From assembly GCA_965215505.1 (NCBI GenBank), contig OZ244065.1, forward strand, positions 1,984,001-2,048,000: a stretch of 64,000 nucleotides of DNA, read 5' to 3'. Source of the DNA: Capsulimonadaceae bacterium (lineage in GTDB: Bacteria; Armatimonadota; Armatimonadia; Armatimonadales; Capsulimonadaceae). Under the pieces are notes generated by a model that did no database searches, was not told the DNA's origin, and saw only the letters and a list, made by a program, of their open reading frames with translations. Both the position numbers and the translations under genes were made by a program. How positions within the stretch are numbered: the first letter of the stretch is position 1; the number at the start of each line of letters is the position of its first letter. This document shows positions 7,359 through 33,530 of the stretch, piece by piece.

Positions 7359-7439
7359 GAGGGCGCGGAGGGGAAAGAGGGCGCGGAGGGGAAAGAGGGC
7401 GCGGAGGGGAAAGAGGGCGCGGAGGGGAAAGAGGGCGCG
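7359..7439 (+). repeat. 18-bp tandem repeat GAGGGCGCGGAGGGGAAA, 4.5 copies
   Basis: Exact units at 7359, 7377, 7395, 7413 and a partial unit at 7431. Confidence 0.95.
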
Positions 7440-7456
7440 ATGAATCGCGCCCCTAC
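7432..7456 (-). repeat. GTAG-type REP palindrome
   Basis: GTAGGGGCGCGATTCATCGCGCCCT; relatives at 37972, 43580, 52277, 52633, 61995, 62036. Confidence 0.8.
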
Positions 7457-7482
7457 ATGGCCCGCATGGGCAGAGAGCGGGA

Positions 7483-7559
7483 TAGCCCATCGGGGATTTG
7501 AACCACCGGTTTCCGCGCCGAGAAGCGCGGCGTCCTGGGCCGGGCTAGACGAATGGGCC
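7483..7559 (-). tRNA. tRNA-Glu(CTC)-like gene with atypical structure (8-nt anticodon loop, bulged T-stem, CCA not encoded)
   Basis: Cloverleaf: acceptor GGCCCAT/ATGGGCT, D-stem GTCT/GGAC, anticodon stem CCGCG/CGCGG, T-loop TTCAAAT; TATACT lies 12 nt upstream. Confidence 0.85.
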
Positions 7560-7603
7560 GTCTCGGGAGGGAGTATACCTGAGAAGATGTCAAGAAGCCG
7601 ATG

Positions 7604-7718
7604 CGGGCGGTTGAAACCGCGCCAACAAAAGCACAAAGTCTGCCTCCGCAGACTAAGACCGGTCCTGAACCTGCGAAGGCAGGTTTCGTGAACTCGTTGC
7701 CGCGACTTCAGTCGCCCG
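7604..7718. repeat. REPIN/MITE-like element with nested palindromic arms
   Basis: CGGGCGGTTGAAACCGCGCCAAC versus inverted CGGGCGACTGAAGTCGCGGCAAC, plus two inner hairpins. Confidence 0.7.
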
Positions 7719-7736
7719 ATCTACTCTTGATGGTCC

Positions 7737-32603: not shown

Positions 32604-33530
32604 TCAGGCGATTTTGTTCACCGTCGTTCGCGCGGCGGCTTGGAAGATCTGGGTGCGGGTGCAGAAGCCGGAGCCATACACTGCCGCATTAGCCGCACCG
32701 GCTGCCACGCCCAGCTTTAGTGCTTCCGCATGGCCCAAACCCTGCTCCCAAGCCCAGACGAAGCCCGCAGTCAGCGAGTCGCCGGAGCCGAGCGCGCTTA
32801 CGACCTCTACGACGGGCGGGATAGCCTCCCAAGTGCCTTCCGCACTCGCAAGGACTGCCCCGCGCACCCCACCAGTCACGAGGGCCAGTGTCACGCCGTA
32901 CTTATCCCGCAAAGCCTGTGCCGAGCCGCCCCAGCCGTCACCACCGACAGACAACGCTTCCAGCTCATGCACGTTCGGCTTGACCAGGAACGGCTTCGCT
33001 TCAACGCCGAGCCGCAGAGCCTCGCCGCTGGTGTCCAGAACAGCCTTGACACCCAGCACATGGGCCAGCCGGATGATGGCGACGTAGATCTCCGGCGGCA
33101 CACCGGGCGGAAGGCTGCCTGATAGGATTACGGCATCATGCCCCGGTAATAGTTCCCGCAGCCGTCTGAGCAGGGCGTCGCATTCCGCCGACGTGACTTC
33201 CGGGCCGGCCTCGTTCAGTACGGTTTCGGTCCGCCCGACCGGGTCCAGAATGGCGGTACAGACACGCGACTCCTGCATGACCGTCACGAAATGGGTATCG
33301 ATGCCCTCGCCGTTCAGGCCGGCCCTGATATATTCCCCGGTCGGCCCGCCTGAAAACCCGGTCGCCGTGACGACGCCGCCCAGTGTCCGGTAGACTCGGG
33401 CGACGTTGATGCCTTTGCCACCAGCGTAGACGCGCGTTTCCGTGGGTCGCTGCACCCGGTCCACGGCGAAGCCGGGGATGGTGTACAGTTTGTCAACCGC
33501 AGCATTGAGCGTGACGGTGAGGACGGACAA
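32604..33530 (-). CDS. 1-phosphofructokinase / tagatose-6-P kinase family (PfkB)
   Basis: TVTLNAAVD, GGKGINVA, SGSLPPG, KPNVHE, GSGDS; probable TTG start after the rpsI stop. Confidence 0.9.
   Translation of the reverse strand: MSVLTVTLNAAVDKLYTIPGFAVDRVQRPTETRVYAGGKGINVARVYRTLGGVVTATGFSGGPTGEYIRAGLNGEGIDTHFVTVMQESRVCTAILDPVGRTETVLNEAGPEVTSAECDALLRRLRELLPGHDAVILSGSLPPGVPPEIYVAIIRLAHVLGVKAVLDTSGEALRLGVEAKPFLVKPNVHELEALSVGGDGWGGSAQALRDKYGVTLALVTGGVRGAVLASAEGTWEAIPPVVEVVSALGSGDSLTAGFVWAWEQGLGHAEALKLGVAAGAANAAVYGSGFCTRTQIFQAAARTTVNKIA

Follow-up and report, generated by a model that had tools for sequence, protein, structure and literature searches.

To our knowledge, a 7-nt anticodon loop and an unbroken T-stem are almost universal in bacterial elongator tRNAs. 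A tRNA-Glu-like gene of a Capsulimonadaceae bacterium (Armatimonadota), located in the stretch of 64,000 nucleotides analysed here (the window), departs from both. Is this a real gene and, if so, what is it used for? The first-pass annotation of this DNA offered two uses: a natural frameshifting or quadruplet-reading tRNA, or a tRNA withdrawn from translation to serve as a glutamate donor. The odd tRNA is a real, strongly conserved gene in one bacterial lineage, and it probably has a specialised job. Both departures are fixed across the family while the canonical tRNA-Glu genes of the same genomes evolve freely. The gene and its unusual parts are as follows.

7483..7559, minus strand: odd tRNA-Glu-like gene, 77 nt, supported by ARAGORN, Rfam RF00005 and conservation in homologues; acceptor stem 7 bp, D stem 4 bp, anticodon stem 5 bp, T-stem 5 bp plus one bulge.
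7536..7546, minus strand: enlarged D-loop AGCCCGGCCCA, 11 nt; A14 and the elbow-contact GG are kept.
7518..7525, minus strand: anticodon loop CTTCTCGG, 8 nt, reading C7525 T T C T C G G7518.
7505, minus strand: bulged T at position 51a, which separates pairs 51-63 and 52-62 on the 5' side of the T-stem.

The earlier minus-strand reading of the gene matches letter for letter on re-reading, and both structural anomalies that it described are present. The discriminator base is A; CCA is absent from the gene. The presumed anticodon CTC occupies loop positions 4-6 (7520-7522), and the extra loop base precedes U33. A pair could form between the C and the G at the two ends of the loop. The D-loop is 10 nt long in some versions of the odd tRNA and 9 nt in canonical relatives.

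ARAGORN and Infernal had been proposed as checks; ARAGORN and the Rfam covariance model both find the tRNA. ARAGORN reports it as the single tRNA of the window, at the same coordinates, and leaves its type as 'tRNA-???'; among 63 predictions in the 6.18-Mb genome (G000), it is the sole unnamed one. RF00005 matches it over the full model (positions 1-71) with 39.8 bits (gathering score 29, E 4.5e-7) when the search region is restricted to 451 bases. When the entire 64-kb window is searched at the gathering threshold, no RF00005 match is listed. In practice, default tRNA or Rfam scans miss this tRNA or give it no name. In the Rfam alignment, the additional base of the T-stem appears as an insertion, and four loop positions stand where the model has three. 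The cloverleaf with the bulged T-stem has an energy of -26.1 kcal/mol; the alternative fold given by ARAGORN, with a 5-nt variable loop and two T-stem mismatches, has -20.4 kcal/mol.

The odd tRNA with both anomalies is found in 32 of 39 Capsulimonadaceae genomes at 91-100% identity; this family-wide presence indicates purifying selection. The 32 genomes and 41 metagenome contigs provide 41 distinct versions. All 41 keep both anomalies, and none has the 7-nt anticodon loop and uninterrupted 5-bp T-stem of a standard tRNA. No intermediate with one anomaly only is present among 52 metagenome matches.

Conservation of the two insertions together with compensatory stem changes was a further proposed check, and both are seen. 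Stem pairing holds in 99.7% of 902 stem cells across the 41 sequences. Double-sided stem changes occur in 24 cells, compared with 6.3 in shuffles; 0 of 500 shuffles reach 24. In the T-stem, pair 49-65 (beside the variable loop) is C-G in 31 sequences and A-U in 10 with no mismatch, and the four G-C pairs flanking the bulge are invariant. The bulged base itself is U in 24 and C in 17. Since the double anomaly recurs in every homologue and pair 49-65 covaries, it is beyond chance. Standard tRNA tertiary contacts involve U8, A14, the D-loop GG, and the T-loop TTC with purines; here T8, A14, G19G20 (alignment columns) and T58, T59 and C60 are invariant in all 41 sequences. The elbow nucleotides (D-loop GG, T-loop TTCAAAT) are kept.

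The anticodon is CTC in 34 versions and TTC in seven; both are glutamate anticodons. The tRNA-Glu identity set known from E. coli work comprises an augmented D-helix (U11-A24, and 13-22 with A46) and the lack of residue 47. The claim that U11-A24, U13-G22 and a short variable loop are all retained holds in part. U11-A24 is invariant (41/41), as is A46 within the variable loop A(A/G)AC, whose count of 4 nt presupposes the bulge model. Pair 13-22, by contrast, is U-G in 28 versions and C-G in 13. The odd tRNA has the augmented D-helix of a tRNA-Glu.

The nearest canonical tRNAs are tRNA-Glu(CUC), with up to 81% identity. The weaker matches that were examined include ten loci at 73-77% identity and two at 81%, all of them canonical tRNA-Glu (11 with anticodon CTC, one with TTC); locus L037, at 91%, is the odd tRNA itself. 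The YUC anticodon, U11-A24, A46, the 4-nt variable loop and the tRNA-Glu(CUC) relatives together strengthen the glutamate character of the gene. The glutamate anticodon has been retained through several CUC/UUC changes, which is most simply read as recognition by GluRS, i.e. charging.

Canonical glutamate decoders are also present. A count of these genes had been called for; G000 has both types, with Glu(CUC) at 32741 and Glu(UUC) at 4993122. In a second genome (G024), the odd tRNA has UUC and both canonical types are again present; the canonical UUC gene was examined in these two genomes. Among 61 relatives, 31 carry the odd tRNA, and 30 of these also have canonical tRNA-Glu(CUC). The odd tRNA is an extra, lineage-restricted paralogue beside a full canonical set, as a non-proteinogenic tRNA is expected to be.

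The constraint on the odd tRNA is inverted relative to canonical tRNA-Glu(CUC). Its acceptor stem is frozen and its anticodon loop varies: across 31 genomes, variable columns number 0 of 14 in the acceptor stem, 2 of 10 in the T-stem and 4 of 8 in the anticodon loop, versus 12 of 14, 8 of 10 and 0 of 7 in the canonical tRNA across 32 genomes. When similarity to the G000 copy is compared, the odd tRNA is the more similar of the two in 27 of 30 genomes, equal in two and less similar in one. Position 37 is A in 32 of 32 canonical copies, versus G in 39 of 41 odd versions; it is a purine in all 41. The loop is CTTCTCGG in 32 versions, CTTTTCGG in five, and CTGCTCGG, CGTCTCGG, TCTTTCAG and CCCTTCAG in one each. 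The loop-closing pair is C-G in 40 and U-G in one. The base 5' of the anticodon (U33) is U in 39 of 41, with G or C in two versions.

Two further elements flank the gene.

7572..7580, minus strand: -10-type box AGGTATACT, 12 nt before the start of the mature tRNA.
7433..7452, minus strand: GC-rich hairpin GGGCGCGA-TTCA-TCGCGCCC, 31 nt downstream of the tRNA.

Within the 50 nt upstream of the odd tRNA, 29 of 31 genomes have a TA[TC]A[AC]T box, 6-13 nt away in 24 of those; the box is GGGTATACT in 18 genomes. The flanks around it are unalignable. It resembles the boxes of other tRNA genes in G000, and a terminator-like hairpin precedes it in this genome. The first-pass annotation had pointed to TATACT (7572-7577) as a promoter box and to TTGACA (7588-7593) upstream of it across a 10-nt spacer. 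The former is a conserved -10 element. The latter is rejected as a -35 element, since it is not conserved even in L007, the closest relative sharing this arrangement. A sigma-70 scan of the locus passes no -35/-10 pair. Separate transcription of the odd tRNA is a tentative reading of these sequences. The downstream hairpin may act as a terminator and is tentatively included in the tRNA unit; it is a dispersed repeat with 67 further matches in the genome, and a terminator scan does not call it.

The explanation that accounts best for these observations, with a probability of roughly 45%, is that the odd tRNA is a functional, separately transcribed paralogue of glutamate identity whose acceptor and T-arm would be read by a dedicated partner. 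After processing, it would be charged with glutamate by the single GluRS; the YUC anticodon, U11-A24, A46 and 4-nt variable loop on which charging would depend are all kept. GAG and GAA would be decoded routinely by the separate canonical tRNAs. A partner that uses or senses Glu-tRNA would read the invariant acceptor and T-arm, and the 8-nt loop and 51a bulge would lower use by EF-Tu and the ribosome. Of the two uses first proposed, withdrawal from routine translation is favoured indirectly over frameshifting; it gains from the canonical tRNA-Glu(CUC) in carriers and from the frozen acceptor stem with a varying anticodon loop, while frameshifting or quadruplet reading gains no support.

The most concrete candidate partner is glutamyl-tRNA reductase (GluTR), which catalyses the first step of haem synthesis; another Glu-tRNA-dependent enzyme is about equally possible. 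G000 has a GluTR gene, as do 57 of 61 relatives. Non-carriers possess GluTR too and get by on their canonical tRNAs, so there is no obvious need for a tRNA set aside for haem. FemAB is present in 41 of 61 relatives and LPG_synthase_C in 45 of 61, the latter not being found in two genera that carry the odd tRNA. GluTR, FemAB, LPG_synthase_C and the adjacent GT-C gene were each rejected as partners that track the tRNA, because each also occurs in relatives without it; this counts against partner models. None of the families tried for co-occurrence tracks the tRNA.

A dedicated second GluRS, EF-Tu or SelB-like factor was likewise rejected: G000 has one GluRS-type gene (PF00749), two equal-scoring tuf copies and one SelB-like gene, which lies near tRNA-Sec. 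The LanB N and C domains, which stand for LanB-type glutamylation, have no match in G000, and the control genomes are also without any match, which leaves the absence of these domains from G000 provisional. Cyclodipeptide synthase (CDPS) has no match in G000 and one in the control genomes.

A division of Glu-tRNA between consumers is known. In Acidithiobacillus ferrooxidans and the Euglena chloroplast there are, as here, several tRNA-Glu and one GluTR, and the available parts of the reports (PMC4284751, PMC5654406) describe translation and GluTR as reading different tRNA-Glu features and competing. EF-Tu is a competitor of GluTR for Glu-tRNA, and one of the tRNA-Glu of Acidithiobacillus does not serve GluTR as a substrate (PMC4284751). 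According to the accessible text of PMC5654406, a point mutant of Euglena tRNA-Glu supports translation and has lost GluTR recognition. The tRNAs singled out in these excerpts serve translation and not GluTR; the reverse is proposed for the odd tRNA. No description of a tRNA-Glu used by GluTR but not by translation was found in the available portions of the Glu-tRNA partition literature.

The Staphylococcus tRNA-Gly NP1-NP3, donors for the pentaglycine of peptidoglycan, resemble the odd tRNA in being lineage-restricted paralogues beside canonical isoacceptors and in having unusual D/T-arm and anticodon-arm features. In the portion of their description that is available (PMC7826273), a single synthetase charges them, partner enzymes read their D and T arms, and the non-proteogenic paralogues bind EF-Tu weakly. 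The odd tRNA differs, on the same partial account, in carrying glutamate identity and in having an inserted loop base and a bulge, not base substitutions. In addition, FemAB is present here yet does not track the odd tRNA.

One extended version of the preferred reading proposes split use, with fast-evolving canonical tRNA-Glu serving the ribosome and the frozen odd tRNA-Glu, held away from the ribosome by its 8-nt loop and 51a bulge, serving a non-ribosomal consumer (GluTR for haem, or an undiscovered Glu-tRNA-dependent enzyme). This version is somewhat doubtful. If it is true, the odd tRNA would be without precedent as a non-proteinogenic tRNA-Glu, and such tRNAs would for the first time extend beyond staphylococci. 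A dedicated non-ribosomal Glu-tRNA would also provide a natural system for the partition of one aminoacyl-tRNA between translation and metabolism. No work on such a tRNA in Armatimonadetes was found, and among the listed papers that name Capsulimonas none has a title on tRNA; supplementary tRNA lists (e.g. PMC5389517) might include similar ones. The available sections of a tRNA review and a survey contain no mention of such a tRNA-Glu.

Some features of the odd tRNA are those of working decoders and count against a specialised job. A U precedes the anticodon in 39 of 41 versions. Strong T-stem pairs at 50-64 and 51-63 favour EF-Tu binding; G50-C64 and G51-C63, beside the bulge, never vary and belong to the strong pairs usual in tRNA-Glu, so EF-Tu avoidance is not evident from the sequence. 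In addition, the 8-nt loop and the 51a bulge are each known in translating tRNAs, within the available text of the sources cited below.

These features lead to a serious rival, in which the odd tRNA is an ordinary elongator that reads GAG (or GAA/GAG) in frame as extra capacity for a frequent codon, with the loop and bulge tolerated and perhaps mutually compensating. Such a role is consistent with the constant glutamate anticodon and the purine that always follows it, with the elbow nucleotides and strong T-stem pairs, and with a -10 box like those of other tRNA genes in G000. It is rather unlikely, however. Canonical tRNA-Glu(CUC) is already present in all but one of the carriers, and a redundant decoder is not expected to evolve more slowly than the canonical gene. 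Ordinary decoding also fits poorly with an acceptor stem that is frozen while loop positions 32-33 and 37 vary, a G at position 37 where canonical copies all have A, or the replacement of U33 in two versions. If the odd tRNA does decode, it shows a tolerance of the bacterial ribosome and EF-Tu that is relevant to tRNA engineering.

Published cases of each anomaly support in-frame translation. Yeast mitochondrial tRNA-Thr(UAG) has a natural 8-nt anticodon loop that is conserved and functional; the consulted parts of its description (PMC7609411, PMC4267643) present it as an organellar tRNA and the sole decoder of the reassigned CUN codons. Unlike it, the odd tRNA belongs to a free-living bacterium, stands beside canonical decoders and has an additional T-stem bulge. 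A 51a bulge at the same place in the T-stem is found in selC* tRNA-Cys and in a minor group of (8/4) tRNA-Sec, and in selC* tRNA-Cys, which does translate, it is dispensable, according to the accessible portions of PMC5389517 and PMC7609411. These tRNAs are described there with an 8-bp acceptor, a 4-bp T-stem, a UCA anticodon and Sec/Cys identity. The odd tRNA, with its 7-bp acceptor, five T-stem pairs plus bulge and CTC/TTC anticodon, is not of this type.

A tRNA-shaped regulatory or decoy RNA with no role as amino-acid donor is unlikely. Possible roles would be sensing the activity of GluRS, soaking up a nuclease that targets tRNA-Glu, or helping to process or stabilise neighbouring transcripts. 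A frozen acceptor and T-arm with a varying loop would suit a protein partner that reads sequence, and the position of the gene is stable, with the GT-C gene(s) on one side and pyruvate kinase on the other in 28 of 30 loci. In L071, L049 and L052 the kinase alignment begins about 10-25 nt past the tRNA. The first-pass annotation had drawn attention to the neighbouring GT-C genes; the synteny is stable and no further link to the odd tRNA was found. Against a regulatory element for the kinase gene, a separate TTGACG-N17-TATAAT promoter lies between the tRNA and that gene in many loci. Regulation by tRNA sensing is used in this lineage, since G000 contains three T-box-like leaders, all below the Rfam gathering score. 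Their specifiers, as read from the alignment, are CUC, AUG and GUC; none is for glutamate, and T-box control via a glutamate specifier was therefore rejected. The glutamate anticodon kept through CUC/UUC changes also argues for charging as the simplest reading, against an RNA with no donor role.

Classical frameshift suppressors are known by their 8-nt anticodon loop, and the odd tRNA could in principle be a natural +1 frameshifting or quadruplet tRNA (GAG-N) for programmed recoding of particular genes. The sequence UCUC, common to 33 of 41 versions (32 with CTTCTCGG and one with CGTCTCGG), is in keeping with such a role. However, the fourth base varies with lineage (UCUC, GCUC, UUUC, CUUC), no frameshifted gene was noticed nearby by the earlier reader, and the frozen acceptor stem is left unexplained. 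In addition, a constitutive-looking promoter and a very common codon in a 66.5% G+C genome would be expected to make such a tRNA harmful. Programmed recoding is thus very improbable. SufB2-type +1 suppressors share the 8-nt loop; in the available part of their description (bioRxiv 10.1101/2020.12.31.424971), they are laboratory-selected mutants of proline and glycine tRNAs, and the odd tRNA is wild-type, is found family-wide and has its extra base 5' of U33.

That the gene is an artefact of assembly or sequencing, or a pseudo-tRNA in decay, as the missing ARAGORN type and the default Rfam miss might suggest, is scarcely credible given both anomalies in every version without one-anomaly intermediates, compensatory stem changes, a conserved promoter box, and independent contigs that cover the tRNA without insertions or deletions. 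The relaxed constraint, broken stems and patchy presence of a pseudogene are not seen. The first-pass annotation considered two sequencing indels in 77 nt unlikely and named assembly error and decay as the outcomes that would overturn it; contigs from an independent run list no insertion or deletion at the tRNA, and conservation with covariation excludes both outcomes. Contigs of metatranscriptome X21 cover the odd tRNA, and DNA carry-over in the library is possible. Those of X20 are without cover at the tRNA, and X23 has one record only, located elsewhere.

The specialised glutamate tRNA would have arisen once, in an ancestor of most Capsulimonadaceae, with both anomalies fixed since; this single origin is a provisional part of the preferred reading. 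Its possible source is the ordinary tRNA-Glu(CUC) type of the order. The odd tRNA was considered as a positional orthologue of the canonical tRNA-Glu(CUC) of relatives and rejected as such, as the pyruvate-kinase loci of five non-carriers are without a tRNA. Canonical CUC of the G000 type is present in 31 of 36 genomes of group f1 and 0 of 24 of f2, and in none of g6, g9 and g10. It turned up in no genera beyond those with the odd tRNA and g3, which is one genome, 68% complete, in which the odd tRNA is not seen.

Replacement of GluRS by transfer was also rejected as a cause of tRNA turnover, since GluRS identity declines smoothly (64-95% in carriers, 54-57% in non-carrier members of the family and 41-48% in the sister family). 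In G032, the canonical tRNA is flanked by a gene whose best homologue (44% identity) adjoins the canonical CUC gene of G000, a link given by one flank in one genome.

The minus-strand sequence reported for 7483-7559 in the first-pass annotation matches the window, and its observation of an eight-base anticodon loop and a bulged T-stem is confirmed. The features of this 77-nt gene (the odd tRNA) are as follows:

Window 7483-7559 (-), odd tRNA gene
Acceptor stem: 7 bp, first pair G1-U72
D arm: 4-bp D-stem, 11-nt D-loop
Anticodon arm: 5-bp stem, 8-nt loop CTTCTCGG
Variable loop: 4 nt, AAAC
T arm: T-stem CGG[T]GG/CCCCG, T-loop TTCAAAT; discriminator A

ARAGORN finds a single tRNA in the 64-kb window, at 7483-7559, and outputs it as 'tRNA-???'; it is the sole unnamed one among 63 predictions for the window's own genome, G000 (a single contig of 6.18 Mb, 66.5% G+C). 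A default Rfam search of the whole window returns no listing; a search of 7300-7750 matches RF00005 at 39.8 bits (gathering score 29; E 4.5e-7), with the extra T-stem base aligned as an insertion and four loop positions versus three in the model. With the other helices held equal, the bulged T-stem gives a folding energy of -26.1 kcal/mol versus -20.4 kcal/mol for the ARAGORN version, which has two T-stem mismatches. In the unconstrained minimum fold (-33.0 kcal/mol) the bulged T-stem stays and the anticodon stem is extended by further pairing.

Of the 41 distinct sequences available, genomes supply 24 and metagenomes a further 17; their alignment has gaps in the D-loop only. Standard pairs fill 99.7% of 902 cells of the bulged cloverleaf; when partners are shifted by one to three columns, pairing falls to 30-56%. 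Two-sided changes occur at five pairs and amount to 24 cells, versus 6.3 in shuffles, and none of 500 shuffles reaches 24. The T-stem pair adjoining the variable loop is C-G in 31 sequences and A-U in 10; since it is never mismatched, the bulge is favoured over the mismatches drawn by ARAGORN. The bulged base is U in 24 sequences and C in 17. Judged from the alignment, the structure is under selection.

Loop positions 4-6 form the presumed anticodon, with CTC in 34 sequences and TTC in seven; the loop itself is CTTCTCGG in 32 and CTTTTCGG in five, with CTGCTCGG, CGTCTCGG, TCTTTCAG and CCCTTCAG found once each. In E. coli, U11-A24, pair 13-22, A46 and a 4-nt variable loop are GluRS identity elements. 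Across the 41 sequences, U11-A24, A46 and the 4-nt length of the variable loop do not vary. Pair 13-22 is U-G in 28 and C-G in 13, so that of the GluRS features listed earlier as retained, U13-G22 is not invariant. Among canonical sequences, tRNA-Glu(CUC) genes come closest, at 81% identity in a neighbouring family and 73-77% in the sister genera and sister family. Relative to these, the odd tRNA has two more bases in the D-loop, one more in the anticodon loop, one fewer in the variable loop and one more in the 5' strand of the T-stem. By its sequence features it is a glutamate-type tRNA. It is also a non-canonical bacterial tRNA, of which a literature search (supplementary files outside it) found no published description.

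The full 77 (or 76) bases are found at 91-100% identity in 31 of 61 related genomes, G000 included, and a whole-family search finds the gene in 32 of 39 genomes. The seven family genomes that do not carry it are one of the same genus (84% complete), the sole genome of another genus (68% complete) and five from three other genera. Four of those five were inspected (G028, G031, G032 and G036), and these contain an ordinary 74-nt tRNA-Glu(CUC) with 73-75% identity to the odd tRNA. Across a phylum sample of 401 genomes, strong matches are confined to Capsulimonadaceae (24 genomes) apart from one 1368-base contig (G381:C629, locus L187) in a fragmented MAG of another Armatimonadota family. This copy has one mismatch in the acceptor stem; the contig is probably mis-binned, since it also encodes a homologue, at 76% identity, of the protease gene next to the odd tRNA in the window. 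An exact-pattern scan for the bulged T-arm plus acceptor end, with one genome for each of 185,579 species, gives 30 loci, of which 29 are titled Capsulimonadaceae, Capsulimonas, Armatimonadales or Armatimonadota. The remaining locus (L053) is in a MAG titled Janthinobacterium lividum and is flanked by the same genes (56-93% identity); it and G381:C629 are probably binning contamination. A metagenome scan using the 5' half alone, with loop and T-arm left free, gives 52 loci: 41 of the odd type (one truncated at a contig end) and 11 canonical tRNA-Glu from other organisms. None of the 52 is an intermediate with just one of the two anomalies.

At 28 of 30 loci the gene is co-stranded with one or two PMT-like (GT-C) membrane transferase genes upstream and/or pyruvate kinase and RNase E/G genes downstream, which indicates that it has been inherited vertically at a single site. 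Synteny apart, no functional tie to these neighbours is seen, because five family genomes have the kinase-RNase pair with no tRNA there, and GT-C homologues likewise occur in relatives that do not carry it. In the one genome with loop CCCTTCAG (anticodon UUC), G024 (locus L058, G024:C4:1617752-1620476), the odd tRNA is not upstream of pyruvate kinase; instead, the GluRS gene follows it on the same strand at a distance of ~1.2 kb. In G000 and G026 the odd tRNA and GluRS genes are widely separated.

G000 also has two canonical tRNA-Glu genes:

G000 32741-32812, tRNA-Glu(CUC)
G000 4993122-4993193, tRNA-Glu(UUC)

The G000-type canonical CUC gene occurs in 31 of 36 further family genomes and in no sister-family genome of the 24 compared; its genera are exactly those with the odd tRNA plus one genus of a single incomplete genome. 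The UUC gene of G000 is detected (E 1e-5) in just five of 23 same-genus genomes. Both canonical types are present in G024, where the odd tRNA has UUC. Canonical CUC sequences were fetched from 31 relatives (32 genomes with G000) and compared with the odd tRNA in 31 genomes. Each pattern used for collection fixed one acceptor-stem strand, so acceptor invariance is to be read from this similarity-based genome set only.

Variable alignment columns in canonical tRNA-Glu(CUC) and in the odd tRNA
Acceptor stem: canonical 12/14 (7 versions); odd tRNA 0/14
T-stem: canonical 8/10; odd tRNA 2/10
Anticodon stem: canonical 4/10; odd tRNA 8/10
Anticodon loop: canonical 0/7; odd tRNA 4/8

When each is compared with its G000 copy, the odd tRNA is more conserved than canonical CUC, in terms of identity, in 27 of 30 genomes, equal in two and less in one. 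Canonical tRNA-Glu genes evolve unusually fast in Capsulimonadaceae (seven acceptor-stem CUC versions in 32 genomes). The canonical CUC gene of G000 divergently adjoins a 548-aa gene (G000:C1:31044-32812), whose best G032 homologue (44% identity) flanks the differently typed canonical tRNA-Glu(CUC) of that genome; there are hints that the tRNA gene at an ancestral locus was replaced or remodelled in carriers.

The odd tRNA may be a specialised, partner-bound Glu-tRNA (a tentative reading, with a probability of roughly 45%), whose partner would read the acceptor and T-arm. It is preferred mainly because constraint exceeds that on the canonical decoder and sits in the acceptor and T-arm, not in the anticodon loop. 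An ordinary in-frame decoder is the less probable alternative. It would fit the retained strong T-stem pairs and the U that 39 of 41 versions have before the anticodon; moreover, an 8-nt loop and an unpaired base between pairs 51-63 and 52-62 (51a) are each described for translating tRNAs in passages of PMC7609411 and PMC5389517. However, mere added capacity should not be more constrained than an essential decoder, and constraint would be expected in the anticodon loop rather than the acceptor and T-arm. A regulatory or decoy RNA is improbable. Two points make quadruplet (+1 frameshift) decoding very unlikely: conservation of the anticodon does not extend to the fourth base, and GAG is a common codon. 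Artefact or pseudogene can practically be dismissed: family-wide conservation and contigs of an independent run, which span the gene with no indel listed, bear out the initial view that sequencing indels are unlikely. The first-pass annotation had proposed either a frameshift-prone tRNA or a glutamate donor withdrawn from translation, and is partly supported; of the two, the donor reading gains support, indirectly.

For a specialised Glu-tRNA, the closest working likeness would be the non-proteogenic tRNA-Gly of staphylococci, or a reversed version of the tRNA-Glu partition in Acidithiobacillus and Euglena. Parts of PMC7826273 describe tRNA-Gly paralogues retained by staphylococci for non-ribosomal use, and parts of PMC4284751 and PMC5654406 describe tRNA-Glu species able to serve one pathway (translation) and not the other (GluTR). 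EF-Tu and GluTR are described as competitors for Glu-tRNA in PMC4284751. The 8-nt loop is common to yeast mitochondrial tRNA-Thr, the 51a bulge to selC* tRNA-Cys and (8/4) tRNA-Sec, and the loop size to frameshift suppressors; the odd tRNA fails defining features of each of these systems.

G000 encodes one GluRS-type gene, two tuf, one SelB-like, one GluTR, one FemAB-family and one LPG_synthase_C gene, and no GlnRS. Cyclodipeptide synthase and LanB domains have no match in G000; the LanB control genomes are also devoid of any match. GluTR is the only known Glu-tRNA consumer present and the most concrete candidate partner. Of the 61 relatives, 57 have GluTR, 41 have FemAB (every family genome included) and 45 have LPG_synthase_C, which two carrier genera lack. 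None of the three tracks the odd tRNA; a point against a role in haem synthesis through GluTR is that relatives that do not carry the odd tRNA also possess GluTR. GluRS replacement is ruled out because identity falls smoothly with distance. Three full-length T-box-like leaders are found in G000:

G000:C1:1902198-1902490 (-), T-box-like leader
G000:C1:5384033-5384356 (+), T-box-like leader
G000:C1:3286676-3286910 (+), T-box-like leader

They score 77.7, 55.1 and 49.1 bits, below the Rfam gathering score of 93. Their specifier triplets, read from alignments, are CUC, AUG and GUC; by this reading none of the three has a glutamate specifier.

Across genomes, the only alignable part of the odd tRNA's flanks is a box located 6-13 nt before the mature 5' end. 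In 29 of 31 genomes the 50 nt upstream contain a TA[TC]A[AC]T hexamer, which falls at 6-13 nt in 24 genomes and is GGGTATACT in 18; the other two genomes have GATACT and TATACA. The gene is predicted to have its own promoter box. Other G000 tRNA genes have similar -10 boxes, mostly with TTGACA 17 nt upstream. The TTGACA noted earlier 10 nt upstream of the -10 box is missing in the closest relative sharing the arrangement (L007), and no -35/-10 pair passes a sigma-70 scan upstream of the gene. The following repeat and hairpin features flank it:

Window 7603-7720, dispersed repeat of ~115 bp inserted between the GT-C gene and the promoter box
Window 7654-7637 (-), terminator-like hairpin inside that repeat
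Window 7430-7460, GC-rich hairpin GGGCGCGA-TTCA-TCGCGCCC, dispersed REP-like element
Window 7359-7439, perfect 18-nt tandem repeat GAGGGCGCGGAGGGGAAA, 4.5 copies, 100% match

The ~115-bp repeat has 24 other copies in G000 (77-90% identity) and weak CRISPR-DR28 matches in Rfam; in contigs of relatives that lack it here, 7559/7563 is joined straight to 7735. A 135-base query over the 7430-7460 hairpin has 68 matches in G000 including itself, almost all on the hairpin, and summed depth there is very high in metagenome and metatranscriptome contigs. The tandem repeat sits between the convergent ends of the odd tRNA and an aspartyl-protease/PDZ gene. The 3' arm and tail of the neighbouring hairpin repeat run on into its 18-nt unit.

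Two further observations lie outside the window. One is another odd tRNA-like gene, G000:C1:4660474-4660547 (-), which ARAGORN types as Glu(ttc): its acceptor stem has 8 bp and its T-stem 5 bp, the base preceding the anticodon is C rather than U, and there is a tRNA-Cys 20 nt downstream of it. Being sporadic (three of 61 related genomes, 80-81% identity), it may be carried by a mobile element. At G000:C1:2219562-2221409, a tight group of six ARAGORN tRNAs (Arg, Asn, Met, Gly, Phe, Lys) lacks the TTGACA/TATAAT promoters of most other tRNA genes and is possibly a tRNA array belonging to a phage or island.
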